Positions 5,755 through 55,925 of a stretch of DNA of 64,000 nucleotides are shown in pieces (position 1 is the first letter of the stretch; each line of letters opens with the position of its first letter). The position numbers were made by a program, and so were the translations under genes. Source of the DNA: Acidimicrobiales bacterium (GTDB lineage: Bacteria > Actinomycetota > Acidimicrobiia > Acidimicrobiales > Aldehydirespiratoraceae). Under the pieces are notes generated by a model. The model was not told the DNA's origin, did not search any database, and was given only the letters and a program-made list of their open reading frames with translations. The DNA is taken from positions 82,890-146,889 of the forward strand of contig JAQWLJ010000011.1 of assembly GCA_029247365.1 (NCBI GenBank), read 5' to 3'.

Positions 5755-5903
5755 GGGTCGAGAACGTAGTTGCCGGCACGCCGCAGCACCGAACGGCCAT
5801 TTCATTCAACCGGCGCTCGCCGACGAACCCGAACCGGACCACGACCTCAAGGACGAAGGCACGGGTTAGCGACCGTTAACTTGAGCGCTATAGAGTGCCG
5901 CTT

Positions 5904-19855: not shown

Positions 19856-19865
19856 GCTAGCAGCC

Positions 19866-20612
19866 ATGAAACCCGACGTGTCCAAGGTCGACTTCCACTT
19901 CGACATCATGTGTCCGTACGCGTACCAGACCGCCAAGTGGATCCGCGACGTCCGCCGGCAGAACGGACTCGAGGTCAACTGGAAATTCTTTTCGCTCGAA
20001 GAGGTCAACCGGATCGAGGGCAAGAAGCACCCGTGGGAGCGCAAGTGGAGTTACGGCTGGTCGATGCTTCGTATCGGCGCACTGCTGCGCCGCAACTCCA
20101 TGGACGACCTCGACAAGTGGTACGAGCGGGCCGGCCGAGCACTGCACGAAGATGGACATCGCCCACATCAGCCTGATGTCGCAAAACACCTGCTCGAAGA
20201 GATCGGTCTCGACCCTTCGCTCGTCGACGAAGCGATGGCCGACCAGACCACACATGACGAAGTGCGCAATGAGCACGACAGAGTCATGAACGTGGGCGGC
20301 TACGGCGTACCGACCCTTTTCTTCGAACGCTACGACGGCAGTGAGCACGCTCTGTTCGGCCCCGTTCTGGTCGACCCCCCGATGGATGATGCGGCGATGC
20401 GATTGTGGGACGCCGTCACTGCGTGGGTTGAGTTCCCGTTCCTTTACGAACTCCAACAGCCGAAGCAGAAGCGCGACGAGCGGGCGATCGCCGAGACCTT
20501 CGCCCCGTACCTCAACGCCCGCGACTGGGTGAGCATCAACCGCGGCGTCGAAGTCAGCTTCTCGAAGGACGGCTTCGAAGCAGTTGGACCGGCCGATCGG
20601 GAGCGCTCATGA
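19866..20612 (+). CDS. DsbA-like thioredoxin-fold protein (monothiol CPYA motif)
   Basis: ORF 19809..20612. ATG 19866 gives MKPDVSKVDFHFDIMCPYAYQTAKW, as in DsbA/2-hydroxychromene-2-carboxylate isomerase-like proteins. Confidence 0.55.
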   Translation: MKPDVSKVDFHFDIMCPYAYQTAKWIRDVRRQNGLEVNWKFFSLEEVNRIEGKKHPWERKWSYGWSMLRIGALLRRNSMDDLDKWYERAGRALHEDGHRPHQPDVAKHLLEEIGLDPSLVDEAMADQTTHDEVRNEHDRVMNVGGYGVPTLFFERYDGSEHALFGPVLVDPPMDDAAMRLWDAVTAWVEFPFLYELQQPKQKRDERAIAETFAPYLNARDWVSINRGVEVSFSKDGFEAVGPADRERS

Positions 20613-22303: not shown

Positions 22304-22392
22304 GGAGACGTGGCCGAGCCAGGTTGAAGGCGCTTCCCTGCTAAGGAAGTAACGTCGTAAGGCGTTCGTGGGTTCAAATCCCACCGTCTCCG
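22304..22392 (+). tRNA. tRNA-Ser (anticodon GCU)
   Basis: GGAGACG acceptor stem, anticodon stem-loop CTTCC-CTGCTAA-GGAAG, long variable arm, T-arm GTGGG-TTCAAAT-CCCAC and 3' acceptor CGTCTCC-G. No encoded CCA. Confidence 0.9.
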
Positions 22393-22428
22393 CGAAAGTC
22401 GATTCAGTGGTCTTACACTGGTTGATCT

Positions 22429-22502
22429 GCGCCCGTAGCTCAGCTGGATAGAGCATCTGACTACGGATCAGAAGGCCGGGAGTTCGAATCTCTCCGGGCG
22501 CG
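22429..22502 (+). tRNA. tRNA-Arg (anticodon ACG)
   Basis: GCGCCCG acceptor stem, D-arm GCTC-AGCTGGATA-GAGC, anticodon stem-loop TCTGA-CTACGGA-TCAGA, T-arm GGGAG-TTCGAAT-CTCTC and 3' acceptor CGGGCGC-G. Confidence 0.9.
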
Positions 22503-22507
22503 CTGGA

Positions 22508-22593: not shown

Positions 22594-25533
22594 TCAGGGG
22601 TTGACGGTGAGTTTCGAACCTCGGCCGTCAGCGTGACGTTCAACGACGATGCCGGGGTGGAGACGTTCCTTCATCGCCTCCACATGCGTAATGACTCCGA
22701 CCATGCGGCCCTGTTCCTGAAGCCCATACAGCGTGTCGATCGCATCATCGAGTGAGCGCTGGTCGAGCGACCCGAATCCTTCATCGATGAAGAGCGCCTC
22801 CGGGGTGTGGCTTCGAGCCGACCCGGCCCGGCTCACGACGTCGGCAAGGCCAAGCGCCAGTGAGAGCGATGCCTGGAACTGTTCGCCACCCGAAAGTGAC
22901 GAGGGCGACCGGTCGCGCCCGGTGTGAGCATCGTCAATCGTCAGGTCGAGACCCTTTGCCCCTCGGCCACCTTCATCATCGTCACGCCGGATTGTGTAGC
23001 GGCCATTGCTCATCTGGCGAAGGTGCACTGACGCAACGGCTGCAACCTGATCGAGTTGCTGACCGAGAACCCAACGCAGGAGGTTGACGTCGTGGCTGCC
23101 GTGGCAGACAGCATGCGCGAGGCGAGCAGCGCTGGCCCGTTTGCGAAGCGCCGCAGAAGCCATCTGGGTCGTGTCGTAGTCCTTGATCGCTTCGGTCGCG
23201 GTCCCTAGTGACTGTTCGACCCTCGTGTGCCGTTCTTCGAGGGCTCTGGCCATGCCATCAGCTTCAGCCGCAGTGTTGGCAAGGGCCTCGGTATCGGGTC
23301 GGGTTTCGGGGACACCTTGCTCCACGAGAGTTTCCAGCGAGGTTCTTGCGTTCGTCGTCTCCTCACGGTGGTTGGCTTCGGCATCAAGGGCTGCTCGCTC
23401 GACGGTGACATCGAGGAGAGCCTGTTGGGCGTCGGCGATTGTCGTGAACATGCTCGAAGCAAGAACACTGGCGAACTCCTTTTCGGCATCTGTTCTGGTC
23501 GTCGTGGACGACACCCTCTTCTCATCCGTTTCCCGATACCGATCGCAGAGTTCGCCGAGTTTGGCGAGCACCGTGTCGTTCGCCTCAAGGATGGTCGCAT
23601 CGATACCTGCTGCCCCATTCGTTGCCACCTTCAGCCGTTCGGTGGTGTCTTCCACACCTTGCTGGAAGCCTCCTTTCGCGCCGGAAAGCCGCGCTGCATC
23701 GGTCATCAGCTGCACTCGTCGCTCGTCGCACTTCGCGCGTATCGACAGCGTTTCGGCGCGTTGTTCGATCGCGTTGACAGCGCCCGTAAATGCCACCTGT
23801 GCAGCCTCGACGCGCGTTTCGACAGCCGCCACGTCGCTTTCGGCATCGGAACCGAGTGAAGTCAGTACCGCAGCGAGGTCGGCGTCGAACGCGCTTCGCG
23901 TTGCCTGGGTCCGCTGCAACTGCTCCTGCGTCTTCAGTACATCGTCGTGGCCGACGACTTGATCCCCATCGGCGTGCTCCGCAGGCCGGGGGTGCTGCGT
24001 CGAACCACAGACGTGGCAGGGCTCTCCAGCCTTGAGTTCGGCAGCCATCCGGGGCGCCTCGCTCTGCAGGTAGGCCCGCATCGTTTCTTTGACAAGGTCC
24101 TCTGCTGAGCGTTCGGCTGTGACCGCACGTCCAAGCTCAGCCTGCAACCCGTCACGACGTTCGATAGTGGCCAGAACCTTCGTCAGATCACGGTGCGCAG
24201 CGTCGAGCGCATCCGTGTCAAGAGACATCTCGGCGAATGCTCGAAGCTTCTCGTCGAGTCCTTCGATCTCGGCTTGGAGGTTTCCCGTCTCAGCCTCATT
24301 CGTCTCGACATTTTGTTTCCACTCGGCAAATTTCTCGGCAGCGCCTTCGGCAGCCCCCATTGCGCTCCTGTAATCGTCGAGCGCCTTTCGCTGAGCCGCG
24401 ACTGCGGACTTCGCTTGTTCGATCGCGGTCGCGACCTTGACCGGTGACGGATCGGCGAAGCTGATCTCGAGCTGCTGTCCGGCTGATCGAAGCTCACCGA
24501 ATACAGCTTCAGACGCAGCGACGGCCAAGGCCTCCGATTCCTTGGCGGCCGCGCATACGCCATCGGCATCGGTCACTGGACGGGCAGTGGCCGACTGTCT
24601 CGCCGCTGCTGCTGCCGTGTTCACGGCCGCCTCACGTTCGCTCAGGTCTTTCAGTTTTTCTTGATAGCCGTTGGCCCGGTCGTATCGGTCGGCAGCGTCG
24701 ACCGCGGTTGTGGCAGTCGCCGAAGCGCTGTTCGCAATCGCTCGGGCAGCAGTCGCCTCGGCCGCAAGGGCCTGGGCCGGTTTGCGAAGGGCATCAAGTT
24801 CTTGACCGAGCTGTTCACGGTCGCGTTGCTCAGCTTCGTCGAGCGGTTCGAGTTCGAATTCTCCTTGCGCCTGCTTGATCATCCCCGCTGCGATACCAAC
24901 GAGTTCTCTGATCCGGTGCTCAACCTCTCCGACCGCAGTTGCGGTTTCGTCGCTCTGTTTTTTCAGTTCTTGGGTGATCGCTTCAAAGACGTCACCGCCA
25001 AAGAGTTGGCGCAGCAAGGTTTCGCGGTCGCTGGACTTGTCGAGGAGAAAACGCTGCACTTCGCCTTGCGGAAGCACCATGACCCGCTGGAATTGATCGG
25101 CATTGAGTCCGATCAGGTTGTTGATGTAGTCCGACACGTCTTGCGTGCCAGATGCCAACGTCGTGGGCTGGTTGCCGTCAATCCTCTTGAGCGACGCCGT
25201 CCGATTTTCCGTCGTCGTCCCACTGCCAACCTTTTTTGGACGGTCGTACTTCGGTGATTGTTCGGCAACATAAACAACCCCGCCGGCCTCGAAGGCGAAC
25301 CGCGCATACGTGTGTATTCCGGGATCGGCATGGTGCGAGCGGATGTCGTCCGCCGGCTTCAGCGGCATTTTGCCGAAGAGGGCAAAACTCATCGCGTCGA
25401 AGACTGTCGTCTTGCCCGTGCCAGTGTCACCCGAGATAACGAACAGGCCACGCGCCGACAGCGCCGAAAAATCGACCTCAACCGCGTCGGGGTACGACCC
25501 GAAGGCAGCGAATTCGATCTTGAGCGGTTTCAC
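22594..25533 (-). CDS. sbcC: SbcC-type SMC-like ATPase (exonuclease SbcCD subunit C)
   Basis: 979 aa with N-terminal Walker A GDTGTGKTTVFDAMSFALFG, a long Ala/Glu-rich coiled coil, the zinc hook CHVCGS, and C-terminal LSGGEQFQASLSLAL, LFIDEGFGSLD and ITHV. GTGA overlap with sbcD. Confidence 0.85.
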   Translation of the reverse strand: MKPLKIEFAAFGSYPDAVEVDFSALSARGLFVISGDTGTGKTTVFDAMSFALFGKMPLKPADDIRSHHADPGIHTYARFAFEAGGVVYVAEQSPKYDRPKKVGSGTTTENRTASLKRIDGNQPTTLASGTQDVSDYINNLIGLNADQFQRVMVLPQGEVQRFLLDKSSDRETLLRQLFGGDVFEAITQELKKQSDETATAVGEVEHRIRELVGIAAGMIKQAQGEFELEPLDEAEQRDREQLGQELDALRKPAQALAAEATAARAIANSASATATTAVDAADRYDRANGYQEKLKDLSEREAAVNTAAAAARQSATARPVTDADGVCAAAKESEALAVAASEAVFGELRSAGQQLEISFADPSPVKVATAIEQAKSAVAAQRKALDDYRSAMGAAEGAAEKFAEWKQNVETNEAETGNLQAEIEGLDEKLRAFAEMSLDTDALDAAHRDLTKVLATIERRDGLQAELGRAVTAERSAEDLVKETMRAYLQSEAPRMAAELKAGEPCHVCGSTQHPRPAEHADGDQVVGHDDVLKTQEQLQRTQATRSAFDADLAAVLTSLGSDAESDVAAVETRVEAAQVAFTGAVNAIEQRAETLSIRAKCDERRVQLMTDAARLSGAKGGFQQGVEDTTERLKVATNGAAGIDATILEANDTVLAKLGELCDRYRETDEKRVSSTTTRTDAEKEFASVLASSMFTTIADAQQALLDVTVERAALDAEANHREETTNARTSLETLVEQGVPETRPDTEALANTAAEADGMARALEERHTRVEQSLGTATEAIKDYDTTQMASAALRKRASAARLAHAVCHGSHDVNLLRWVLGQQLDQVAAVASVHLRQMSNGRYTIRRDDDEGGRGAKGLDLTIDDAHTGRDRSPSSLSGGEQFQASLSLALGLADVVSRAGSARSHTPEALFIDEGFGSLDQRSLDDAIDTLYGLQEQGRMVGVITHVEAMKERLHPGIVVERHADGRGSKLTVNP

Positions 25534-26714
25534 GATGCCTCCTTCGTTGCCGCCGCAACCGCTGCGGTCAACAACTCACGCTCGAGATCATCGGGTTCTG
25601 CACCCTGCCGTTCACTCCAGAACGCGACCACGGTCTCGAGTGGATCGATCCGGTCGGGCGATGCCTGCGGCTCGACAGCCGTCGTCGTGACCACACCCGA
25701 GGGTTGGAGGTGGACCTCGACCGTCAAGGGGTATCGGGCTTCCAGTCTCGACTTGGCATCGAGGATGAGGCCCGGATCGGTGACCGTGGCGCGAACGAAC
25801 CGCCCCTCGGCGTCGCGGTGACTTGTCGAGTCGAGCAGCTCTTCCATCGTGCCTGTCATCGAATAGACCTTGCGGCCGACGGCGAGCTCGACCGTGTCGA
25901 TTTCGACGGCACCGGCGGCGTCCATGTCGACGATGGTGACAGACTTCTGATGGTCCTCAGAGAACGAGTACGGCAGCGGTGTTCCGCAGTAACGGATGTT
26001 TTCACGGCCGACGTTCTGGGGGCGATGCAGGTGCCCCAACGCCGTGTACGAGAAACCGTCGAAAACGGAGGCGTTGACCGCCCCATGCCCGCCGACCTCG
26101 ACCACGCGCTCAGAGTCGGACTCCTGAGGCCGGTCCTCAGGTCGGTCTCCACCGATCACGAAAGCGTGCGCGACCGCCACCGAGCGCGGCGCTCGCAGTT
26201 CCGAGTGGGTCTGCTTGATCGTATCGGCCAAGACCTCGTGGTGGGTTCGCTGAACACTGCGGTCGAGCTTCTCGTCCATGGTTCGGTCGGGGTCGTCGTC
26301 AGGCGCTGCAATCGGATCGAGGAAAGGCAGCAGCACGAGGTCGAGCGGACCGTCGCCAAATTCCAGGGGGATAACCCGACCGATGCCTTCGTACCCGCCT
26401 CGGACGTACACGCCGGACCCATCGAGAAGATCGTCGTAGGGCGACAGTCGGTCGGCGCCGTCGTGGTTCCCAGAGATGACCGCGACCGTCACCTCAAGGT
26501 CCCGGAGCCGCCGTAACGTCATTCGAAACAGTTCGATCGATTCTGTCGGGGCGATCGCTCGGTCGAAGATGTCGCCAGCGATGATCACGAGGTCCACATC
26601 GTGATCGTTCACGATGCCGACAAACACATCGCAAAACGACGCCTGGTCGTCGTGCAGCGACACCGGCCCGAAGCTCCGGCCGAGGTGCCAGTCGCTGGTG
26701 TGGGCGATTCTCAC
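25530..26714 (-). CDS. sbcD: SbcD nuclease (Mre11-like phosphoesterase)
   Basis: The track ORF is 25530..27053. The conserved N-terminus VRIAHTSDWHLGR starts at GTG 26714, preceded by GGAGGA. Also present are IIAGDIFD and ISGNHD. The 113-aa upstream extension is Arg/His-rich and looks like junk. Confidence 0.85.
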   Translation of the reverse strand: MRIAHTSDWHLGRSFGPVSLHDDQASFCDVFVGIVNDHDVDLVIIAGDIFDRAIAPTESIELFRMTLRRLRDLEVTVAVISGNHDGADRLSPYDDLLDGSGVYVRGGYEGIGRVIPLEFGDGPLDLVLLPFLDPIAAPDDDPDRTMDEKLDRSVQRTHHEVLADTIKQTHSELRAPRSVAVAHAFVIGGDRPEDRPQESDSERVVEVGGHGAVNASVFDGFSYTALGHLHRPQNVGRENIRYCGTPLPYSFSEDHQKSVTIVDMDAAGAVEIDTVELAVGRKVYSMTGTMEELLDSTSHRDAEGRFVRATVTDPGLILDAKSRLEARYPLTVEVHLQPSGVVTTTAVEPQASPDRIDPLETVVAFWSERQGAEPDDLERELLTAAVAAATKEAS

Positions 26715-26789
26715 GTTGTTCCTCCGCTTCGCTCTCCGTGGCACGATGGCACTGCTGGCGACAGGCCACCGCACACGAGGGACACATCG

Positions 26790-27686
26790 ATGAAAACCAG
26801 TCGATCCGACAGCCGGTTGGCGGTCGGCATTGCAATGTTCGTGCTCATGCTCGCAGGCTGCGGCGTCGACGACACGCCTCCCGCTGCGCCAACGGGCGAT
26901 CTGATCGTTCAACAGGGGCCGTTGAGTGGTCCTCCCACACTGGTCTCGGTCTCGCTCGACACCGTCGAGTCGTCCATCCTCGTGCCCATGTCGGACGGCG
27001 CCGCTGCGGGCCGGTGGGCTCCCGACGGTGAACGCCTGCTCTGGACCCAGCATTCGGCTGACGGTGCGGCTGCGATCAGGGTCGGCAAGCCTGACGGCGC
27101 CAACTCGGTGGCCGTCACGTCGGTTCGCTCCGGCGACGTGGCGACCTGGGCACCCAACTGTCGCCGGATCGCGTTCTCACTGCGAGAAGAAGCCACCGGC
27201 GCCCATGGGCTCCATCTTCTGGCACTCGACTCCGCCGAGACAACACCGCTTGCCGACGGGGGTGACGGCGCGACACCCGACTGGTCACCGGTTGGCGAAC
27301 AGCTCGCGTTTGCCAGTGATCGGGGTGGAGACACCGACATCGTCGTCCTCGACCTCGTCGACGGCAGTCAACGACAACTCACCGACAACACCGTTGGCGA
27401 CACCGGGCCTCGCTGGTCCCCCGACGGCGACAGCATCGCCTGGGCAAGTCGTGTCAACGAGCGCAAACAGATCTTCGTGATGGGTGCTGATGGCAGCGAA
27501 ACAGCACAACTCACCACCGGCGCAACCGGTGGTGAGCACCCGGTGTGGTCACCAGACGGCGAGTGGATCGCCTACCAGCAGGCCGGGTCCGCCATTGCGA
27601 TCATGCGAGCGGACGGCAGTGACCACCGCCTCCTTGACATCGTCGGGATTCCGACCGACTGGGGGCCACCGACCGGCTCGTGTTGA
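26790..27686 (+). CDS. TolB-like (PD40/WD40-like beta-propeller repeat) lipoprotein
   Basis: ORF 26601..27686. ATG 26790 gives MKTSRSDSRLAVGIAMFVLMLAGCG, which has a lipobox. There are repeated W(A/S)PDG...(I/L)A(F/W/Y) PD40-type blades. GAGGGA lies upstream. Confidence 0.7.
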   Translation: MKTSRSDSRLAVGIAMFVLMLAGCGVDDTPPAAPTGDLIVQQGPLSGPPTLVSVSLDTVESSILVPMSDGAAAGRWAPDGERLLWTQHSADGAAAIRVGKPDGANSVAVTSVRSGDVATWAPNCRRIAFSLREEATGAHGLHLLALDSAETTPLADGGDGATPDWSPVGEQLAFASDRGGDTDIVVLDLVDGSQRQLTDNTVGDTGPRWSPDGDSIAWASRVNERKQIFVMGADGSETAQLTTGATGGEHPVWSPDGEWIAYQQAGSAIAIMRADGSDHRLLDIVGIPTDWGPPTGSC

Positions 27687-44014: not shown

Positions 44015-46243
<2,229 letters not shown>

Positions 46244-46314
46244 ACGTCAGGTTGTCGTTCTGACGTATCGCAATGCGTCGTCCAGGCCCACCGTGGCTCG
46301 GACGGCGCATTGCG
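46244..46314. terminator. two hairpins in the convergent katG/amidohydrolase gap (possible bidirectional terminator)
   Basis: ACGTCAG-N9-CTGACGT (46244..46266) and CGCAATGCGTCGTCC-N16-GGACGGCGCATTGCG (46269..46314, 14/15 paired). Neither has a clear U-tract. Confidence 0.4.
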
Positions 46315-46350
46315 GACGCAGACCGGCGGGTTCGATGGTGACCGACGCGT

Positions 46351-47640
46351 TTACTCGGGCCAGGGGACGCCGTAGTCCTCGAACCACCAGCGAGCCTCGC
46401 GGATAGCATTCGGGTCGGTGCGCAGCCCCGGGTCTTGATTGAGCTGCTCGGGGGTGGGGCCGACCTTGTCGGCGATGACGGTCAGGGCGTCCTGGTCGAG
46501 CTCGTAGCACTTCACCGCATTGAGGCCGAGAAGCAGACGTGTCTCCTCGATCGGGATCTGCTGAAAGTCGGTCTCAAGGCGGGTCTTGGTGTTTGGCCAC
46601 GATCCTTCGGGGTGCGGGTAGTCGGTACCCCACATGAGGGCGTCGACGCCATTGACGTAGCGGCGGCGCAACTCAACCTTGCTCATGGTCGACGCGCCGA
46701 TAAAGACGTTCTCGCCGATGTACTCCGACGGCAACCGCTCGATGAGGCCGTGGGTACGGCTGCTCATCTTCTTGACCTTCCAGTTGGTGCCACCGAACAT
46801 CACATCGGTCTTCCACATGAGGTCACCGAGCCACCACGAACCGCACTCGACCGGCGCATATTTGAAGTTCGGGAACTTATCGAATTTGCCGGACAAAAGG
46901 AACTGCCAGAGGGGGCGATGGGTCCAGAACGCGACCTCGAGCATGTACTGGGCCATGTTGTCGTTGTAAGACGCAGCATCGGCCTCGCCCGAGTGGGTGT
47001 GCACAACGAGGCCAGTCTCGTGGCAGGCCTGCCAGACGGGGTCATACATCTCGTGGCCGTACGACGGGGCGTCATGCCACATCGTCGGGATCATGATCCC
47101 CTTGATGCCGGGCTTATCAGCGAGAGCATGAATCTCTTTCACCGACTCCTCTACCCCATGGGTGACGGGGACGAGCGCCACGCCGGCCCGCCGGGGCGGG
47201 TTAGTGGCGCAGAACTCCTCAAGCCATCGGTTGTGGGCTCGAGCGCCCGCCCATGCCAGCTTTGGGTCGGTGATGGCTCCAGCGTGGAGGCCAGCGCCAA
47301 ATGGCGGTGCTTCCATGCCCGTGACCGCGTCACCGTCGGCAAAGATCACTTCGCCCGCGATGCCGTCGGCGTCGAGGGCTTCGTCGCGGATATCGGGGTC
47401 GTAGGCGCCCTTGAGACCGTGCTCGTTCTCGCTCTCCCACTGCTCGACGTACTCGCCGTTCATTTCCTCGACCATGACGCGATGCTCATGGCGACCGGCC
47501 AGCCACTCGTCGAACTGTGGATGGACGGATGACTCTAGGTACTCGCGGTAGTCGTCAACGTACAGACCAGCGTGCGTGTCAGAGCTGATGATGATGTACG
47601 GAGCGTTGGACTGATCAACGCCTTCGAGCGGGTTGGGCAT
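46351..47640 (-). CDS. amidohydrolase-2 family metal-dependent hydrolase/decarboxylase (ACMSD-like)
   Basis: ORF 46351..47676. ATG 47640 is preceded by GAGGGAG and gives MPNPLEGVDQSNAPYIIISSDTHAG. The later HTHSGE and WGTDYPHPEG segments are typical. Confidence 0.7.
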   Translation of the reverse strand: MPNPLEGVDQSNAPYIIISSDTHAGLYVDDYREYLESSVHPQFDEWLAGRHEHRVMVEEMNGEYVEQWESENEHGLKGAYDPDIRDEALDADGIAGEVIFADGDAVTGMEAPPFGAGLHAGAITDPKLAWAGARAHNRWLEEFCATNPPRRAGVALVPVTHGVEESVKEIHALADKPGIKGIMIPTMWHDAPSYGHEMYDPVWQACHETGLVVHTHSGEADAASYNDNMAQYMLEVAFWTHRPLWQFLLSGKFDKFPNFKYAPVECGSWWLGDLMWKTDVMFGGTNWKVKKMSSRTHGLIERLPSEYIGENVFIGASTMSKVELRRRYVNGVDALMWGTDYPHPEGSWPNTKTRLETDFQQIPIEETRLLLGLNAVKCYELDQDALTVIADKVGPTPEQLNQDPGLRTDPNAIREARWWFEDYGVPWPE

Positions 47641-47699
47641 GGCACTCCCTCTGTCCACCGTTGCGGTGACTTGCACGGCGTTCTAGTATTACTTGCACA

Positions 47700-48350
47700 G
47701 TGTCCCAGAATACCGCTCAAGCCGTCAACACCGGCAGACGCGCCGGCCTTGACCAGGCCGACATGGTCGCCGTCGCGCTTCGCCTTGTCGAGAGTGGCGG
47801 CCCCGACGCGCTGACAATGCGCCGCCTCGCCGCCGAACTCGACGTCACCACCAACACCGTCTACTGGCACGTCGGCTCCCGTGACGAGTTGATCGCTGAG
47901 GTTATCCGCACCCGCTCGACGCAAATGGCCACCCGCGAGGTCGTCGGCACAACGGCGCGGGAACGCGTCGTCTCCGCCGCCCGCAACGTATGGGACAGCG
48001 CATTCGCCAACCGTGCGGTCACCTCGCTCGCCCACCAGACCGGCACGACGGCCCTGCTCGAACATCCGCTCGAAGTTGCGCTCGCTCACGAGATCGAAGC
48101 CGCCGGCCTCACCGGCAACGATGCAGCGCATGCACTTCGCTCGATCCTGTCGACCGTCGGCGGCTTCCTCGTCGGGGCACTTCGCGACGAATCGGCCATC
48201 CCTGCGAACCTGCGAGCTCCCGCACTGTGGTCGAAGACCGAAGCGGGCCTCGACGCCGAAACCGTCGACGCGTTGTCGGAGCCAATCGACCACGCCTCGG
48301 TCTTTGCCACAACACTCGACGCTGTGGTCGCCGCTTCCATTTCTGCCTAA
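47700..48350 (+). CDS. TetR family transcriptional regulator
   Basis: 216 aa with the HTH LTMRRLAAELDVTTNTVYWHVGSRDELI. It is divergent from the amidohydrolase. Confidence 0.8.
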   Translation: MSQNTAQAVNTGRRAGLDQADMVAVALRLVESGGPDALTMRRLAAELDVTTNTVYWHVGSRDELIAEVIRTRSTQMATREVVGTTARERVVSAARNVWDSAFANRAVTSLAHQTGTTALLEHPLEVALAHEIEAAGLTGNDAAHALRSILSTVGGFLVGALRDESAIPANLRAPALWSKTEAGLDAETVDALSEPIDHASVFATTLDAVVAASISA

Positions 48351-48389
48351 GGTTCGCCTTCCACAGCAGGCACGTGAGACGCTGTCGGT

Positions 48390-49151
48390 ATGGCTGAAGC
48401 ACCACAGGCCCGTCGCGGTGAAATCGCCGGCTGGCCGAAGCTCGTGATCACGTACCAGACCGGCGATGGAAACATCGCCCCACTGCTCCCGGCCGGTATC
48501 GAGCCGACCGGCGACAACACCGTGCAGGTCGGGATCTATTGCGTCCCGATTCAAGGCGAACCCGAGTACGGCGTGTCGATCAAGGTCCCGGCCCGTTGGC
48601 AGGGCGTCAAGGGTCAGTACAACCTCGGCATGGGCATCGATCAGGAAGCGGCGGTCTTCATCTCCGGCGAACGGAATGGCCAACCGAAGTTCCTGTGTGA
48701 CATCGACTATTACCGCCTCGGTGACTCGGTCGGCGCGCGAGCAACCCATCAGGGCTACACGTTTGTCGAGTATCACGGCACGGTCACCGGCGACGGGACT
48801 CCCGGGCCTGAGTACACCGAACACGAATGGTGGACGAAGTACAGCCGCGAGATTGGCGGCGGGGAGGGCTACGACTTTGCCCCCGTGGTGGTCGACGTGG
48901 CGACCACTATGCAGCCTGTTCACGTCGAACACCTCGACGGCGAAGTCACGCTGCTCGACTCGCCCTGGGATCCGGTCGCCCACTATCTACCGGTAGAAGG
49001 TGGGGTCGAAGCGATGCTTGTCACTCACCAGATGAAAGCCCGCGAGATCTCGAATGCCGGCCCGCTCGACCCCGACGCGTTCGGGGCTCATGCAGACGTG
49101 ATCGGTGGAAGCCGGTGGCCAGGAACGGGTGGTGGGCCCCGGCGGGGCTGA
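48390..49151 (+). CDS. acetoacetate decarboxylase (ADC) family protein
   Basis: 253 aa. SGERNGQPKF matches the ADC Schiff-base lysine motif (G-x-E-x-x-G-x-P-K) as I recall it from Clostridium Adc. Confidence 0.55.
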   Translation: MAEAPQARRGEIAGWPKLVITYQTGDGNIAPLLPAGIEPTGDNTVQVGIYCVPIQGEPEYGVSIKVPARWQGVKGQYNLGMGIDQEAAVFISGERNGQPKFLCDIDYYRLGDSVGARATHQGYTFVEYHGTVTGDGTPGPEYTEHEWWTKYSREIGGGEGYDFAPVVVDVATTMQPVHVEHLDGEVTLLDSPWDPVAHYLPVEGGVEAMLVTHQMKAREISNAGPLDPDAFGAHADVIGGSRWPGTGGGPRRG

Positions 49152-49335
49152 CCTCTGACGGACAACCCGACCACGCTCAACTGATGGCGGGTCGGTGCTG
49201 TCGAAGGTATGCGGTCGGCGTTCCCCACCTCGCAGCCAGACCTGATGGACACGCTGCTCTCCGCTCCCGCGGTCTGACTGAGGGAGACCGGATCCACTTC
49301 TGCCAGTTTGGCTAGCACTTGCTACGGTTCGGCCC

Positions 49336-50409
49336 ATGGCGACCTCCTTCCAAGTCAACCGATCGTCCATCCGTGACACCCAGTTCGTCGGCCGCGATGG
49401 GCGCGACCTCTTGGCCGGCGAGGTGCGCTTCTCGATCGATCACTTCGCACTGACGTCGAACAACGTCACGTACGCGGTCGCTGGTGACATGCTCGACTAC
49501 TGGGGGTTCTTCCCCATCGATGAACCGTGGGGCCACGTGCCGGTGATGGGCTACGGCGAGATCATCGAGTCGGCCAACCCCGACATTGCACAAGGGATGC
49601 GCTGCTTTGGCTTCTTCCCGATGGCCGACGAGCACGTTCTCCTCGCAGAGGCAACCGATGCTGGCCTGCTCGACATCGGCCCCCACCGGGTCAATCACGC
49701 GCCTGTCTACCGCCAGTTCGCAAACGTCGCCAAGGACCCGGCGCACGACCCCAACCGGGAAGCGCACGTGGCACTGCTTCGGGGCCTGTTCATGACCGGC
49801 TGGCTGGCTGAGGACCTCCTGTTCGACAACGACAACTTCGGCGCCGAAGCCACCATCATCACAAGCGCCTCATCGAAAACAAGCATTGCCACGGGCTGGA
49901 CGGTGCAACAGCGAGGCGGCTTGAGCGTCGGCCTGACGTCGGAACGCAACCGCGAGTTCGTTGAGGGGCTCGGTTGCTACTCCGAGGTCATCACCTACGA
50001 AAACATCGCTTCGATCGACAATGCTCGTCGCTCCGTCGTGATCGACATGGCCGGAAACGGTCACCTGCTCGCTGACGTGCACAACCATTTCGGTGGCGAG
50101 TTGGCCTACTCGATGGCGATCGGTGGCAGCCACTGGGAGTCATTCGGCGACCGGCCCGAGATGGCGGGCCCAACACCCACGTTCTTCTTCGCACCGGGCC
50201 AGATCGAGAAGCGCAACACCGACTGGGGTTCGGGCGAACCGATGCGCCGCGTGGCAAAAGCGTTCGCTGCCTACATGCAGTTCACCGACCAATGGCTCGA
50301 CATCGAGACAGCAGACGGCCCGGACGCACTCACCGACGCGTGGACTGGCTTGGTCGACGGCACCATCGCGCCGGCCACCGGCCTCATGCGATCGTTGACG
50401 AGGGGCTGA
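49336..50409 (+). CDS. DUF2855 family protein (MDR-like fold, function unknown)
   Basis: 357 aa. HFALTSNNVTYAVAGDMLDYWGFFP...WGHVPVMGYGEIIES matches my recollection of the DUF2855 signature. Confidence 0.6.
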   Translation: MATSFQVNRSSIRDTQFVGRDGRDLLAGEVRFSIDHFALTSNNVTYAVAGDMLDYWGFFPIDEPWGHVPVMGYGEIIESANPDIAQGMRCFGFFPMADEHVLLAEATDAGLLDIGPHRVNHAPVYRQFANVAKDPAHDPNREAHVALLRGLFMTGWLAEDLLFDNDNFGAEATIITSASSKTSIATGWTVQQRGGLSVGLTSERNREFVEGLGCYSEVITYENIASIDNARRSVVIDMAGNGHLLADVHNHFGGELAYSMAIGGSHWESFGDRPEMAGPTPTFFFAPGQIEKRNTDWGSGEPMRRVAKAFAAYMQFTDQWLDIETADGPDALTDAWTGLVDGTIAPATGLMRSLTRG

Positions 50410-50434
50410 CTGGCCCGGTCTAGGATCCCGGCTC

Positions 50435-51004
50435 ATGGAAACCATGCCGGTTCTGGAGCAGTTGACTGCACGGTGCAAGCAGGCGGTCGCCGGCGACCGG
50501 GCCCGCGAGGACATCAGCGCGGTCATGAACGCGCTGTTCGAAGATCCCGCCACGCTCGCCGCAACGATCCCTCGGTTCCGCGACGATGAGGTCGCGACAA
50601 GTCCCCGAGGATTCCGGCTCGGTGGTGAGCACATCTGCTACCAGTCGTCCGACTTGACTGTGATGGTGCTCGACACGCTGCCCGGCGTGCTCCAGCCGCC
50701 CCACGATCACAACATGGTTGCATTGATTGGCGTGTTCGAAGGCTGCGAGGAGCAACGCTTCTGGGCGCGGGCGGAGGGGGGCATCACGCCCGCGGCTGGC
50801 CGCATGCTCGAGGCGGGCGAAGTGGTCGTCCTCGGCGAGCGAGCGATTCATGCGATCAGTGCACCAGCTCACACCCCTGCCCGTGCGATTCACGTGTACC
50901 TGGGCAACATCGATGGCGTCGACCGGTCGGTCTTTGACCCCGACACGCTCGAGGAGCACCCGATGAGCAGCGAGCGCTACGACGGGTACTGTCGCCCGGC
51001 CTAG
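50435..51004 (+). CDS. cupin, cysteine-dioxygenase-like (COG5553-type metal-dependent DSBH protein)
   Basis: 189 aa with LQPPHDHNMVALIGVFEGCE...AIHAI, the cupin His ligands. Confidence 0.5.
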   Translation: METMPVLEQLTARCKQAVAGDRAREDISAVMNALFEDPATLAATIPRFRDDEVATSPRGFRLGGEHICYQSSDLTVMVLDTLPGVLQPPHDHNMVALIGVFEGCEEQRFWARAEGGITPAAGRMLEAGEVVVLGERAIHAISAPAHTPARAIHVYLGNIDGVDRSVFDPDTLEEHPMSSERYDGYCRPA

Positions 51005-51756
51005 GGCAACCACGAAGGCACTCGGTCCACCGGCTCGATCTGGCCACACAGCGCGCTGATCGCGGCCATGAGTTCATCGGTGACCGCACGCTTGTTGCTG
51101 GCGGTCGGCTGCCCAGTACCGAGGGCGCCGAGATCGATCGGTGCACCGATACGGACCTGTACGGAGGCATGCCGGTAGGGCAGTTTGTGATCGACAGGGA
51201 GGGCCACATCGCTTCCGATGATCCCGACAGGAATGAGTGGAGCACCCGACCGGAGTGCGAGATGGGCGGCGCCAAGATGGCCTTCAAGGAGACGACCGGT
51301 GCGGCTGCGAGTGCCTTCCGGAAAGATCCCAATCACGTGGCCTGCGCCGAGTCGGTCCAACGCGAGGCGAAGGCTTTGCCCGATGCCTCGCCCGCTCCGG
51401 TCTATTGGGATCATGCCGGCGCGAGGAAACACATAACGGGTCACGCGGTTGGTCATGTACTTGGCCTTGCCGAGGAGGGTGACGGGACGGCGAAGGTCGG
51501 TCATCAGTAAGGGCGAGTCGAGGAACGAACGATGGTTCGCAGCAACGATGGCCGGGCCGTCGACCGCTATGTTCTCCGCTCCGTCGATGCCGATGTCGAG
51601 CCATCAGTGTGTGAGCACTGGGGTGATGAGCCGAAGTGGTCGCTGCCAGGCCCCCACGGCTGCCGGGTCGGCCTCGGTGAGGAGTTCAGAGGCGATCGCC
51701 TGACGCTCACCACCGAGGCCTGAACGGGGGGTGTCGAGGTCGGTGGTGAGCGTCAT
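51001..51756 (-). pseudogene. PlsC-type lysophospholipid acyltransferase interrupted by an in-frame TGA
   Basis: My translation from ATG 51756 reads MTLTTDLDTPRSGLGGERQAIASELLTEADPAAVGAWQRPLRLITPVLTH-TGA(51606..51604)-WLDIGIDGAENIAVDGPAIVAANHRSFLDSPLLMTDLRR... This continues in-frame into track ORF 51001..51504. The catalytic NHRSFLD (HX4D) box lies between the stop and the first possible restart codon. The FPEGTRS box lies downstream. Confidence 0.6.
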
Positions 51757-51865
51757 GCGTTGCACGGTACGAATCGCTTACGAACGGCCCGTGTAGCACT
51801 CGTGAACCTCGTGTTACGCGAGGGCGTTTTATCGTCAAATGCCGTTCAGCTGCACATGTGTCGGG

Positions 51866-52561
51866 TCACGAGAGCTGAACGATCGCTTCGTGCTCGACTG
51901 CAACGACAAGTTCATCACTCACCGTCATGCGCATGTCCACGACCGCACGCTCACCCGCTCGCGTGGTGAACCGGTCAATCTCCCACGACTCGATCACCAC
52001 GGTGTCGCCCGGCCTGACCACACCAAGATGCCGAATACGACTGCGGGTGTGAACCCACGGACCGTCAACGAGTTGCCGCGTGAACACTCGGTTACCCAGG
52101 GACGGCCACACGACCGGATGTACGAGGTTCTCGTTGCGGTAGAGACCGAGATCTTCACCGCAGCGGCCGGCGTAGCCAGCCCACGAATCGGTTATCACCT
52201 CGACGAGGGGTTCCAGCCGGTCACCGTCGGGGTCAGGCGGCGCCGCCGAGACCCGCTCTGGCACCAGGACGGCGCAGGCTCGGCCATCGACCGAGGCCGT
52301 CACTTCGTTCTCGTCGCCACCTATGACCACGAGCTCATCGGCCAGAACCGGACCACGAAACCGGACCTCGTGACCGCCACCGGTCACCCAGTCGGTACCC
52401 CATGCCTCAGCGACGGGTCGGGTGGCGTAGGCAAAGATCGTCGTTCCAGCGACGACAGCACCTGCGTAGCCCGCGGCGAGTCCACCCTCGACGGCATGCA
52501 CCGGGTTATCGGAGTGTTCTTCGAGGTTGACGGCATTGATCGACCAGTCCGGAAACAACAT
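51866..52561 (-). CDS. MaoC-like / hotdog-fold dehydratase family protein
   Basis: ORF 51866..52630; start MLFPDW (52561) preferred. It has double hotdog-like halves (NPVHAVEGGLAAGYAGAVVAG... and ...VHTRSRIRHLGVVRPGDTV). Confidence 0.55.
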   Translation of the reverse strand: MLFPDWSINAVNLEEHSDNPVHAVEGGLAAGYAGAVVAGTTIFAYATRPVAEAWGTDWVTGGGHEVRFRGPVLADELVVIGGDENEVTASVDGRACAVLVPERVSAAPPDPDGDRLEPLVEVITDSWAGYAGRCGEDLGLYRNENLVHPVVWPSLGNRVFTRQLVDGPWVHTRSRIRHLGVVRPGDTVVIESWEIDRFTTRAGERAVVDMRMTVSDELVVAVEHEAIVQLS

Positions 52562-52689
52562 CGCAACATCTTGTCCCAGGCGAGCGGGCAAGGACCGAAC
52601 TCCCTTCGACCACGAGCACACCGTCTCCACCGGACCGAGCCGAAGACTTTTTCGCCACGCTCCCCAACAGACGCCGTAGCCTCCGACGG

Positions 52690-53391
52690 GTGAGCGACTT
52701 CTCCTTCGACTGGCGAGCGTTCTCTACCGGGGCACGAGACATCATTGCGCTCGGATTCCCCGGCATTCCGGTGGGCATGGTGATCGGTGTCGTGATCACC
52801 GAGTCGGGCATCGGTGACCTTGCCGGCTGGGTTGGATCGTGGGTCATCCTTGCTGGGGCCGCGAACCTCGCAATGCTCGAGTTGATGGCCGAACAAACCA
52901 GCGCGGCGGTCGTTCTGCTCACCGTGGCATTCATCAACTCTCGCCACGCGATGTACTCCGCTGCACTCCGGCCGAGATTTGCCGGCTTCCCGCGTTGGTT
53001 CCGCTTCGTGGGGCCCTACTTCCTGATCGACCAGGTCTTCGCGCTCGCCGCCTCACAGCCCGTCGACATGCCGGACCGTGAGCGGATGTGGAACTACTTC
53101 GGCTCGGCGATCACCCTCTGGGTGCTGTGGGTCGCGTCGGTCACCGCCGGCCTCTTCCTGGGCGACATCATCGATCCTGACTGGCAGCTGACCTTTGCCG
53201 TTCCCCTGCTCTTCGCCGGGCTGATGCTGCTGAGCATCACCAACCGTCCGGGCATCGTTGCCGCCGCGGTTGGCGGTGGTGTCGCCCTGCTTACCGCCGG
53301 CTTTCCCCAAGGCTCCGGCGTACTCATTGCGATCATTGCTGGGGTGAGTGCCAGCACCCTCGCCGAGACTCGGTTGGGAGCAGCCTCGTGA
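52690..53391 (+). CDS. azlC: AzlC family branched-chain amino acid export permease
   Basis: 233 aa and hydrophobic. GAANLAMLEL...FINSRHAMYSAAL is typical of AzlC. GTG start. Confidence 0.75.
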   Translation: MSDFSFDWRAFSTGARDIIALGFPGIPVGMVIGVVITESGIGDLAGWVGSWVILAGAANLAMLELMAEQTSAAVVLLTVAFINSRHAMYSAALRPRFAGFPRWFRFVGPYFLIDQVFALAASQPVDMPDRERMWNYFGSAITLWVLWVASVTAGLFLGDIIDPDWQLTFAVPLLFAGLMLLSITNRPGIVAAAVGGGVALLTAGFPQGSGVLIAIIAGVSASTLAETRLGAAS

Positions 53392-53702
53392 GCGTCTGGG
53401 CAACCGTCCTCGCCGCCGGCATCATCACGTACCTCAGTCGCGCGTCGTTCATCACCGCCGGCGACCGGATCACGTTGCCGCCAACCGTTGAGCGCTCGCT
53501 CCGCTACGTCGCCCCTGCGTCGTTTGCAGCGATCGCCATACCGGCGACCCTCAACGGTGATCGGTTCGCAAATTTCGGCGATGACTGGCCGCGCGTCATC
53601 GCCGTGGTCGTCGCCTCGGTGGTCATCGTGCGGTGGCGCAACGTTCCCGCCAGCCTGCTGATCGGGATGGCCACCCTCTGGCTGATCCTCGGCGTCAGCT
53701 GA
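53388..53702 (+). CDS. azlD: AzlD family small membrane protein
   Basis: 104 aa. GTGA overlap with azlC. The sequence begins MSVWATVLAAGIITYLSRASF. Confidence 0.7.
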   Translation: MSVWATVLAAGIITYLSRASFITAGDRITLPPTVERSLRYVAPASFAAIAIPATLNGDRFANFGDDWPRVIAVVVASVVIVRWRNVPASLLIGMATLWLILGVS

Positions 53703-54180
53703 ACCCGTTGGTGGAGAGGTTGAGGCCCTCAATCCCAGTCCTTGGGTGCATCTCCTCGTAGGTGCGGGTGTAGCCGGTGTGGCTGAGCTTCCAACCGTCA
53801 TCGGTCTTCACGTAACGATCCTCGTAGAACGCTGCGCCACGGAGGTTCACACCGAAATCGGTGATGATCACCTGATCTTCGAGCTTCCAGATGCCCGTGG
53901 CAGTGCCATCGTCGAACACATCGATCTCGGGATGGTGGCAGGCGTGACTCGACAGGAACTCGGGCCGCCCCATGTTCTTGTGGAGGAAAGCGATGATCCC
54001 GGCGAGGTCATCGAAGCTGTAAGTGCCGTCGGAGTACGCGGCGGTGCAGTTGTCGGTCATTACCGTGTGGAGGTCGTCGAAGCGGTGCTGATCGACCAGC
54101 CGCAGGTAGGCGTACTTGCAGCGCTTGATGAGCTCCATCTCGACGAGGAGTTCGGGCGTGACGGACAGGGGCTCGCTCAT
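53695..54180 (-). CDS. NTF2-like / SnoaL_4 family protein
   Basis: 161 aa. ELIKRCKYAYLRLVDQHRFDDL...YEDRYVKTDDGWKLSH is typical of the nuclear-transport-factor-2 fold. GGGGGA lies upstream of the ATG. Confidence 0.7.
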   Translation of the reverse strand: MSEPLSVTPELLVEMELIKRCKYAYLRLVDQHRFDDLHTVMTDNCTAAYSDGTYSFDDLAGIIAFLHKNMGRPEFLSSHACHHPEIDVFDDGTATGIWKLEDQVIITDFGVNLRGAAFYEDRYVKTDDGWKLSHTGYTRTYEEMHPRTGIEGLNLSTNGFS

Positions 54181-54194
54181 TCCCCCATGCTTGC

Positions 54195-55382
54195 CTACGC
54201 CGTCAATGGAAGCGATTCGTAGCGGCGCACAAAACTTCCCGGGGCAAAGCGCCCGGCCGCTGCGTCGACGACAAAGGAGGGAAATCGCTCGAGTAACCGA
54301 CCGAGCACAACGCGGGCCTGGAGCCGCGCCGCTGACGCCCCCAGACAGTGGTGTGCGCCGTAGCCAAGGCTCAACATCTTGTCGATGGCGCGCCCGACGT
54401 CGAGATCGCCAGCACGGGCACCAAATTCCCGCTCGTCTCGGTTGGCCGAGCCGTACAGCAGCAAAACCTTGTTGCCCTCAGGAACCGTTTGGCCGTGGAG
54501 CTCAACCTCGGTGGTCGTGGTGCGGGCCAGGTTCTGCACCGGTGAGGTGAGTCGCAGAAGCTCTTCGACTGCGTCCTCGATCCGTGTTGGGTCATCGAGC
54601 AGTCGCTGCCGTTCGTCACGGCGTTCGGTCAGTAGCTCAGCCGACCCACCGAGCATGCCGGTCATCGTGTCGTTTCCGCCGGTGACCATCGTGAAAACGA
54701 ATCCGACGATCCAACCAGCGGACACGACGCCCTCGCCCACTGCGATCAGATCGGTCACGAGGTCCTCCCCCGGTTCGATCTTCTTCATTTCCAGAAGCTC
54801 GGTCGCGTAGGTGAAAAGTTCGAGCGCCGCGTCCATCGCTGTCTCAATCCTGCCGGCAGCGTTCGCGGCAACGATGGCGTTGGTCCAACGGTCGAAATTG
54901 TCGCGGTCGGCGGTTGGCACACCGAGATAGTGCGCAACGACGAACGACGGCAACGGCTTGAACAAGGTGCCAACGATGTCGATCGGTTGCCCGCCCGCGT
55001 CGGCGATGTGGTCGAGACGAGCGTCGACAAACTCGCGCACAGCGGCCTCGATGTACCCCACGCGGCGGGGCGTCATCTGCTTGCCTACCAACCGACGCAT
55101 TGCGGTGTGGTCGGGCGGGTCCATCATCACAATCGGCTGCTGGCCCTCCTCGAACATCGCCATGGCATCGGCGTTCGGTGTGAGCCCCTGCGCTGATGAG
55201 AACGTGGCGGTGTCGCGCACTGCGGTGAACACGTCGGCGAACCGCGACAGCACCCAGAAGTCGACGTTGTCACCCTCAGCCGGCACGAAGTGCACAGGCG
55301 AGTCATCACGAAGAGTTCGGTAGTCCTCCCACGGTGACCGCCAGGTCTCGCCACTGCGAAGAAAAAAGCTGCCGCTCGCCAT
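54195..55382 (-). CDS. cytochrome P450
   Basis: 395 aa with the EELLR (ExxR) motif and heme loop LSLGYGAHHCLGASAARLQ. Confidence 0.9.
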   Translation of the reverse strand: MASGSFFLRSGETWRSPWEDYRTLRDDSPVHFVPAEGDNVDFWVLSRFADVFTAVRDTATFSSAQGLTPNADAMAMFEEGQQPIVMMDPPDHTAMRRLVGKQMTPRRVGYIEAAVREFVDARLDHIADAGGQPIDIVGTLFKPLPSFVVAHYLGVPTADRDNFDRWTNAIVAANAAGRIETAMDAALELFTYATELLEMKKIEPGEDLVTDLIAVGEGVVSAGWIVGFVFTMVTGGNDTMTGMLGGSAELLTERRDERQRLLDDPTRIEDAVEELLRLTSPVQNLARTTTTEVELHGQTVPEGNKVLLLYGSANRDEREFGARAGDLDVGRAIDKMLSLGYGAHHCLGASAARLQARVVLGRLLERFPSFVVDAAAGRFAPGSFVRRYESLPLTA

Positions 55383-55448
55383 AGGCGAAGCATTTCATCT
55401 CTGCGAAACCCCTTGGTCAATGCATCGCTGCACCAAAGGCGAGCGACG

Positions 55449-55925
55449 TCAGTCCAAGAGGCCGCTGAGTTGCTCGCTGATCTCCTCAGGCGAGACCGTT
55501 GGGCCGAATCGCTGCACGACCTCGCCGCTGGCGTTCACCAGAAACTTCTCGAAATTCCAGGCCACATCGGACGTCTCCCCGGTGCCGGGCTGCTCGGCCT
55601 TGAGCCACGTGTAGAGATCGGCTGCGCCGTCACCGTTGACATCAATCTTGGCGAACATTGGGAAGTCGACATCGAAATTCTCCGCGACGAAGGCCCGGAT
55701 CTCTCCGGCCGTTCCCGGCTCCTGGCCGCCGAACTGGTTGCACGGGAAAGCCAGAACCTGGACCCCGTTCTCGTCATGATGAAGCGCACGCAGACCTGCG
55801 TACTGAGGCGTGAGGCCTCAAGCGGATGCGACGTTGACGACGAGGCAGGCCGAGTCAGCGAAATCCGAGAACGAGACCTGCTCACCATCAAGCGACGCCA
55901 TTTCGAACTCATGGAAACGGCTCAT
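55449..55925 (-). CDS. glutathione peroxidase, selenocysteine-containing (TGA at 55820..55818 decoded as Sec)
   Basis: My minus-strand translation from ATG 55925 reads MSRFHEFEMASLDGEQVSFSDFADSACLVVNVASA-TGA-GLTPQYAGLRALHHDENGVQVLAFPCNQFGGQEPG... This is in the same frame as track ORF 55449..55658 (...WNFEKFLV...). The TGA sits exactly where Cys-GPx proteins (e.g. E. coli BtuE, VNVASKCGLTPQY) have the catalytic Cys. A SECIS-like hairpin follows. Confidence 0.85.
55786..55803 (-). other. bacterial SECIS-like hairpin GUACGCA-GGUC-UGCGUGC
   Basis: 7-bp stem with a GGUC apical loop, starting 15 nt (5 codons) after the UGA. Its core GCAGGUCUGC is identical to the core of the E. coli fdhF SECIS as I recall it (GGUUGCAGGUCUGCACC). 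Confidence 0.6.

Follow-up and report, generated by a model that had tools for sequence, protein, structure and literature searches.

The 64,000 nucleotides analyzed here (the window) come from an Acidimicrobiales bacterium (GenBank assembly GCA_029247365.1, contig JAQWLJ010000011.1, positions 82,890 to 146,889 of the forward strand) and carry, on the minus strand, a gene of the glutathione peroxidase (GPx) family with a single in-frame TGA at its predicted catalytic position. An earlier note on this DNA, made from its letters alone, had interpreted the gene as a selenoprotein in which this TGA specifies selenocysteine (Sec) directed by a selenocysteine insertion sequence (SECIS) like that of Escherichia coli fdhF. 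The open reading frame (ORF) track records, in the GPx frame, a 69-residue ORF alone (55449..55658, minus strand). Translation of 55925..55449 (-) extends this to 158 codons in which the only internal stop is the TGA at 55820..55818 (with its flanking residues, VVNVASA*GLTPQY), and in which the GPx motifs LAFPCNQF and WNFEKFL are unbroken, all of which agrees with the earlier description.

For family and structure searches of the window protein the TGA codon was read as Cys. The protein matches the Pfam family GSHPx (PF00255) over the whole profile, from position 1 to position 108 of 108 (E=2.8e-36; 123.8 bits, the cut-off being 27), and 38 solved GPx chains at E<1e-20, the best of these structures being of the GPx4 type (Schistosoma 2v1m, E=1.1e-39; human GPx4 entries, approximately 1e-35 to 1e-36). 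Sec36, the predicted catalytic residue, occupies the first position of a UxxT motif (U-G-L-T), and with it the catalytic tetrad is complete (U36, Q68, W123, N124) at the spacing of the GPx4-type alignments (Table 1). We take Gln68 to be the counterpart of GPx4 Gln81, from its spacing and from the GPx4 numbering, and presume the equivalence of the remaining tetrad residues on the same footing. Among the 50 Pfam-supported genes of the window, 35 terminate in TGA, the GPx gene included, and the genetic code is therefore not globally reassigned; a hairpin scan of the window reported no SECIS-type hairpin 3' of the true stop of the GPx gene.

Table 1. Coordinates of features of the GPx gene, in positions of the window, with the basis of each assignment.
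Feature	Position	Strand	Basis and remarks
Full-length GPx-family coding sequence	55925..55449	minus	Translation; 158 codons plus stop; ATG at 55925..55923
Predicted Sec36 codon (in-frame TGA)	55818..55820	minus	Aligns with Cys in 141/141 Cys-form homologues
5' mini-hairpin UGAGGC-CUCAC-GCCUCA, containing the UGA	55804..55820	minus	Minimum free energy fold of the window gene and most orthologues; abuts apical hairpin
Predicted SECIS apical hairpin GUACGCA-GGUC-UGCGUGC	55786..55803	minus	Folding and comparison; 7-bp stem, 4-nt loop
Gln68 codon (GQEPG motif)	55722..55724	minus	Spacing match to Gln of GPx4 catalytic tetrad; alignment to GPx4-type structures
Val80 codon (resolving-Cys column of 2-Cys GPx homologues)	55686..55688	minus	Cys in 140/141 Cys-forms and 0/20 Sec-forms
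Trp123-Asn124 codons (WNFEKF motif)	55554..55559	minus	Structure alignment; matched to Trp and Asn of catalytic tetrad
True stop codon (TGA)	55449..55451	minus	Translation

Homologues of the gene were sought in a scan of one genome per species and in a scan of JGI metagenomes, each of which returned 80 loci. TGA occupied the catalytic column of eight loci at the first parse of the genome scan, and of two others (L005 and L010) on inspection, and TGC or TGT that of 68, which represent the more distant homologues; in the metagenome scan the corresponding numbers were 8 and 69. With the addition of exact-protein look-ups and removal of duplicates, 22 distinct relatives (50-80% identity) were found to carry TGA at the identical column, each with this one in-frame stop and no further disruption. 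The column is Cys in every Cys-form homologue, placing the TGA at the catalytic Cys/Sec position as had been claimed; among the orthologues it recurs at exactly the predicted column, with no sign of random disruption. These TGA-forms are labeled as metagenome-assembled genomes (MAGs) of Acidimicrobiales, Acidimicrobiaceae or Actinomycetota, or are unlabeled metagenome contigs, the exception being L010, labeled Gammaproteobacteria.

Protein searches returned many close relatives stored as fragments of 101-124 residues that start just past the TGA column, together with three apparently full-length relatives in which that column holds C, R or W. Reference to the underlying DNA distinguished these: the codon of the 'W' protein (P0004, from JGI) is TGA, so that its Trp is an artefact of the translation table, and the codons of the 'R' protein (P0002, locus L085) and the 'C' protein (P0001, locus L084) are truly CGA and TGT, respectively. 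Three assemblies, independent of one another and made from different samples, encode the C-terminal 69 residues of the window protein identically and have the same TGA and hairpin ahead of them; a sequencing error, which the earlier note had named as a possible refutation, is thereby ruled out. Upstream of the TGA, an ATG lies 34-35 codons away in all 20 full-length distinct orthologues, with no other stops and with a single length difference, one 3-nt indel. The ratio of nonsynonymous to synonymous change (pN/pS) in these 20 sequences is 0.52 upstream of the TGA and 0.37 downstream; judged by these comparisons, the 35 codons preceding the TGA are under purifying selection and are translated.

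The RNA that follows the UGA forms a hairpin, starting at the 15th nucleotide past that codon, in both the minimum free energy (MFE) and the centroid folds of the region, and so conforms to the 7-bp, GGUC-looped structure which the earlier note had placed at 55803..55786, 15 nt after the UGA. Folded alone it has an energy of -8.5 kcal/mol and the structure (((((((....))))))), with a loop beginning 21 nt past the UGA. A published model of bacterial SECIS elements describes a loop of 3-9 nt, an upper stem of 4-16 bp and a G at the first two positions of the loop, together with a UGA-to-loop distance of 16-37 nt and an MFE of at most -7.5 kcal/mol (PMC13188914). The hairpin agrees with this published description on all four of its criteria, having a 4-nt GGUC loop that starts with GG, 7 bp, a distance of 21 nt and the energy given above. 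Its likeness to a characterized element is also direct: in E. coli K-12 fdhF the UGA is followed by CAC GGC CCA UCG GUU GCA GGU CUG CAC, and the 10-mer GCAGGUCUGC is identical in the two genes, in both of which its reading frame yields Ala-Gly-Leu. The fdhF core that the earlier note had quoted, GCAGGUCUGC, is thus the actual E. coli K-12 sequence.

Comparison of the two elements beyond this core reveals both likenesses and differences. They have in common the GGUC tetraloop, the 10-nt core and a location within the ORF shortly past the UGA. Unlike the perfect 7-bp helix of the GPx stem, however, the fdhF stem has a bulged U in its 5' arm, (((.(((....)))))), which is required for binding of E. 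coli SelB; the mini-hairpin begins 11 nt past the UGA in fdhF, a spacing that matters in E. coli, but 14 nt past it (one codon further) in the GPx gene; and the UGA of fdhF is embedded in a long lower stem, whereas that of the GPx gene belongs to a 5' mini-hairpin of its own (55820..55804). The earlier description of the element as an fdhF-like SECIS therefore holds for the core and the loop, which are identical, but not for the missing bulged U or for the spacing, which is 3 nt longer. By analogy, we consider that the GPx element resembles the fdhF SECIS core and would work as that core does, without being a copy of it.

The distribution of the hairpin among homologues follows that of the TGA. 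At the homologous position, 6-7 of the 7 stem pairs can be formed in all 23 TGA-forms; in the 141 Cys-forms the number of pairs peaks at three and is mostly three or fewer, with at least six being found in L084 only. Across 19 distinct sequences 99.2% of the apical stem cells are paired. Four of the stem pairs are invariant and two vary on one side, and all of the variants keep the pairing: six sequences have U-G in place of U-A, and one has U-G in place of C-G. For Ala43, Gly44, Leu45 and Arg46 the codon entropy in Sec-forms is 0-0.3 bits, compared with a mean of 1.30 bits over 30 equally conserved codons of at least four-fold degeneracy (Mann-Whitney p=0.001). Where the family at large has Glu or Gln after Gly-Leu, Sec-forms have Arg (CGU), and the stem is completed by this replacement. 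In the 5' mini-hairpin (5-6 bp), 86% of cells are paired; since its counterpart, UGCGG/CCGCA, pairs in most Cys-forms as well, this structure is no mark of Sec-forms in particular. At the catalytic codon, the third base was also seen to track the wobble base of Pro40 (TGA with CCT, TGC with CCG), which constitutes weak evidence because the Sec clade has a single origin.

Taken from the window by itself, the hairpin is not beyond what chance would provide: the 10-mer GCAGGTCTGC occurs there once against 0.27 expected, and at least one copy was present in 21 of 100 shuffles. Its significance derives from the strict co-occurrence of TGA and hairpin in relatives and from the frozen synonymous sites. 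A scan of the window for other read-through TGA codons based on G+C content at third codon positions (GC3) was too noisy, missing even the GPx gene. A stricter scan of 0.68 Mb called for a TGA and then, after 16-37 nt, a GGTC-looped stem of 5 bp or more, the frame being open to either side. Every locus gave back its GPx gene; of six other candidates none was gene-like in frame, and the scan so yielded no second selenoprotein.

From this evidence, ORF 55925..55449 (-) is very probably an intact gene encoding a GPx4-like, monomeric-type peroxidase with a predicted selenocysteine as its peroxidatic residue. The Sec-GPx interpretation of the earlier note thus finds support in the orthologues, in the published SECIS model and in the repeated recovery of the TGA from independent assemblies. 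By extension from the bacterial Sec pathway, SelB carrying GTP and Sec-tRNA(Sec) would bind the in-ORF hairpin GUACGCA-GGUC-UGCGUGC; once the ribosome arrived at UGA36, the tethered SelB complex would deliver Sec in competition with release factor 2; and translation would then run on for 122 codons to the second TGA which, having no such hairpin, would act as a stop.

Several results weigh against this interpretation. The fold of a 71-nt segment is unremarkable for its G+C content (z-score -0.11), and a 301-nt region gave no match to Rfam at E-values up to 10; at gathering thresholds, Rfam found two tRNAs and nothing else in the whole window. The lack of an Rfam match is expected, as bacterial SECIS elements are poorly represented in that database. 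Covariation analysis of the Sec-forms detected no double (compensatory) changes in the apical stem, and the hairpin is consequently supported by its conservation and by the contrast with Cys-forms, and not by covariation. The occurrence of CGA in L085 and of TGT in the closest sister, L084, means that the Sec state is labile in this lineage. The machinery for Sec insertion did not appear in the DNA at hand: Pfam scans of approximately 60 ORFs in the 64-kb window found no selA, selB or selD domains, ARAGORN detected no tRNA-Sec in the window and none at 10 Sec-GPx loci, and neither sel genes nor tRNA-Sec were present in approximately 1.4 Mb of sequence flanking other loci. The tRNAs of the window are tRNA-Ser and tRNA-Arg only, and tblastn searches with E. 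coli SelB and a partial SelA against all of the DNA retrieved gave only weak matches, to GTPase domains in unrelated loci.

These points bear differently on the alternatives. That the TGA is a mutated or miscalled TGC or TGT, so that the gene is dead or in fact encodes Cys, we find scarcely credible: TGT in L084 is one base from TGA and another relative has CGA, but TGA occurs at one column in 22 genes of considerable divergence that have no other stops or frameshifts, it is identical in three independent assemblies, purifying selection acts on both sides of it, and the hairpin is specific to forms that have it. Next to no weight, in our view, can be given to the proposal that the conserved nucleotides are a by-product of amino acid conservation in QYAGLR combined with codon bias, with no RNA element involved. 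The hairpin does lie within the region of the conserved alpha-1 helix, QYxGL is kept throughout the family, and the stem offers no compensatory changes to argue otherwise. Yet Cys-forms having YAGLE or YAGLQ use varied codons for these residues and have no stem; the four- and six-fold degenerate codons of the stem are near-invariant in Sec-forms, whereas equally conserved residues elsewhere vary; GCA and GGT are unlike the GC-rich codons favored at approximately 78% GC3; and the family-wide Glu or Gln has given way to Arg (CGU) in exactly the manner that completion of the stem needs.

Two further explanations were weighed. In one, UGA36 would be read by a near-cognate tRNA (Trp, Cys or Arg) or by reassignment, the hairpin stimulating read-through or slowing the ribosome and not recruiting SelB. 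Such a reading draws on the lack of sel genes in the window and in the flanks of other loci, on the Trp in the JGI translation of orthologue P0004, and on the consideration that Cys inserted at UGA would still yield an active 1-Cys peroxidase. We regard it as very unlikely, in that TGA terminates most genes of the window, the hairpin fits a SelB-type model in loop, size and spacing and shares its core with the SelB-binding core of fdhF, the Trp of P0004 arises from the translation table while its DNA reads TGA, Trp or Arg as the peroxidatic residue would be inactive, and TGC or TGT would be the simpler means of encoding Cys, as in 141 homologues. In the other, the selenoprotein is functional in relatives but stranded here as a relic, the Sec machinery having been lost and a 35-residue peptide being made. 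The window has no sel genes, and TGT in the sister and CGA in another relative suggest that Sec is being lost in parts of the clade; but the gene in the window is undamaged, its hairpin is intact and near-identical copies exist in three other samples, although a stranded gene would be expected to decay or turn to Cys. This, too, we consider very unlikely, and we retain the interpretation of the gene as, very probably, that of an intact Sec-encoding peroxidase.

The protein sequence provides some indication of the type of enzyme predicted. The column of Val80 corresponds to the resolving Cys of thioredoxin-dependent 2-Cys GPx homologues, a residue not known from animal Sec-GPx enzymes. A single Cys-form has no Cys in this column, presumably L084, whose place is within the Sec clade. 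As far as these alignments indicate, Sec and the loss of the resolving Cys go together in this clade, as they do in GPx4. The resolving Cys being missing, the selenenic acid would probably be reduced directly by an external thiol; the reductant may be mycothiol/mycoredoxin, or thioredoxin attacking directly. A separate residue, Cys27, nine positions ahead of Sec as in the alignment with 2v1m, is present in 15 of 20 Sec-forms but in only 5 of 141 Cys-forms.

Among characterized enzymes, those of the animal GPx4 type (2v1m, 2obi), which natively carry Sec, are alike in providing the best-matching structures and in having a short, monomer-type chain without a resolving Cys and, in 2v1m, a Cys nine residues before the active site. 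They differ in using a SECIS in the 3' untranslated region with SBP2 and eEFSec, unlike the in-ORF, bacterial-type hairpin of the window gene; in the actinobacterial host, mycothiol is the expected thiol in place of glutathione. The 2-Cys GPx thioredoxin peroxidases (yeast Gpx3/HYR1, 3cmi; poplar GPx5, 2p5q) share the fold and the motifs FPCNQF and WNFxKFL, with approximately 45-55% identity, but have Cys in place of Sec and, in addition, a resolving Cys at window column 80; that residue forms an intramolecular disulfide that is reduced by thioredoxin.

Mycothiol-linked genes are present in the window, in the form of an MDMPI-family gene at 4969-5805 (-) and an Rv2466c-like gene of the DsbA fold at 19809-20612 (+), and they make mycothiol/mycoredoxin or thioredoxin plausible reductants. 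The window also has a KatG-type catalase-peroxidase at 44015-46243 (+). The host is therefore probably an actinobacterium that uses mycothiol and has several defences against peroxide.

Variants inside the Sec clade illustrate its lability. L084:3383-3835 (ENA ERZ27313181 k141_150515), with 87% amino acid identity to the window protein, has TGT at the Sec column and a complete hairpin. A neighbor-joining tree of 161 homologues places it as sister to the window gene within a clade that is otherwise all Sec, and its synteny with the window runs through GPx-P450-SnoaL-AzlD/C as far as KatG. Read most simply, a recent replacement of TGA by TGT (Sec by Cys) has left a fossil SECIS. L085:1484-1960 (ENA ERZ23499074 scaffold_14248) has an intact hairpin and, at the catalytic column, CGA (Arg), one base off TGA; an allele without activity, variation within the population or misassembly of the 2.3-kb contig may account for it.

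Two other members are of irregular composition or placement. The Sec-form at L010:2778-3269 (JANNBJ010000198.1), from the MAG labeled Gammaproteobacteria (locus G+C content 57%), belongs to the same clade and has its stem, GUACGC/GCGUAC, but with a 6-nt loop, CGGGUU, and an insertion after the hairpin; its presence there could be due to horizontal transfer or to a binning error. At L083:1-441 (ENA ERZ27289224 k119_208939) the last 69 residues match those of the window protein exactly, and the residues ahead of the TGA (…YKGNLALVVNVASA) are like those of a different subclade (L096), a mosaic that could have arisen through intragenic recombination or chimeric assembly.

Bacterial Sec-GPx proteins with an in-ORF SECIS are already established, and the window gene is a new, taxonomically placed example. 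Five Sec-GPx sequences were described from the Sargasso Sea (PMC1088965, 2005), 40 Sec forms against 3,287 Cys homologues from Global Ocean Sampling (GOS) data (PMC2398784, 2008), and in a 2026 review (PMC13188914) the entry 'GPX-like protein, PF00255, UxxT' is rated a high-confidence prediction. The statement of the earlier note that such proteins are known from surveys but rare is accordingly fair as to rarity, the family being nonetheless well catalogued. Like these marine bacterial sequences, the window gene is a PF00255 member with Sec in UxxT and an in-ORF stem-loop after the UGA having G in its apical loop, and it comes from a marine setting and a family in which Cys homologues far outnumber Sec forms. 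Unlike the Sargasso and GOS sequences, to which no taxa are assigned, the members of the present clade are found in MAGs labeled Acidimicrobiales, with one labeled Gammaproteobacteria. The comparison with the published entries (AACY01190440, WP_010957027.1) is one of description and not of sequence.

To this known family the present analysis adds a placement in Acidimicrobiales, a SECIS core identical to that of fdhF, a perfect anticorrelation of Sec and resolving Cys, and a sister gene that has reverted from Sec to Cys; knowledge of the mechanism of Sec decoding is unchanged by it. The Sec gene, the TGT sister retaining its SECIS and the 2-Cys outgroup offer a natural comparison of Sec with Cys. 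In public records the clade is represented by N-terminally truncated 'glutathione peroxidase' entries (121 aa, in NCBI MAG annotations), the Trp-bearing JGI record and unnamed fragments; for P0004, P0013, P0019 and the other matches of 101-124 aa, no source name among the listed matches says selenoprotein. With the clade stored as fragments or in a Trp-form, the proteome of the abundant marine Acidimicrobiales, and metabolic inferences made from it, miss a probable selenium-dependent antioxidant enzyme.

Beyond a recent preprint on Actinomarinales we found almost nothing in the literature on Sec in Acidimicrobiales. That preprint, in which Actinomarinales are discussed alongside Acidimicrobiia, reports that each of 84 complete genomes of Actinomarinales has selC, selA, selD and a divergent form of selB (10.64898/2026.04.03.716425); this is indirect support for the sel genes which the earlier note had expected elsewhere in the host genome. 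The present gene would complement it by adding one more lineage of selenium-requiring aerobic marine bacteria. A more ambitious synthesis can be framed, in which a Sec-GPx clade of single origin coupled its Sec to loss of the resolving Cys and to a switch from a thioredoxin/2-Cys to a GPx4-like one-selenol mechanism, the enzyme being an undescribed selenium-dependent mycothiol/mycoredoxin peroxidase, with Sec decoding widespread in marine Acidimicrobiales beyond Actinomarina and horizontal transfer of the gene into a gammaproteobacterium. Taken as a whole, this would be a doubtful construction, which we put forward tentatively.

The surroundings of the gene show both shared and variable features. 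A common order (KatG, Amidohydro_2, TetR, ADC, DUF2855, …, AzlC/AzlD, SnoaL, P450, GPx) extends through 44015-55925 of the window and is found in L084 and L087 (the latter on a 252-kb contig, ERZ6864591 c_000000892357), another orthologue, L091, being carried by a 520-kb contig (Ga0315338_1000065); an exact-protein look-up of the P450 neighboring the GPx gene found no identical protein on record. Upstream of GPx, the window and L085 have TauD and an amidohydrolase, and L084 and L087 have a divergent Cupin_8 gene and an acyltransferase. Elsewhere in the window, an SbcC/SbcD nuclease pair at 22594-27053 (-), with a GC3 of 0.67-0.75 that is below that of its neighbors, adjoins the genes for tRNA-Ser(GCU) and tRNA-Arg(ACG) at 22304-22503 (+).

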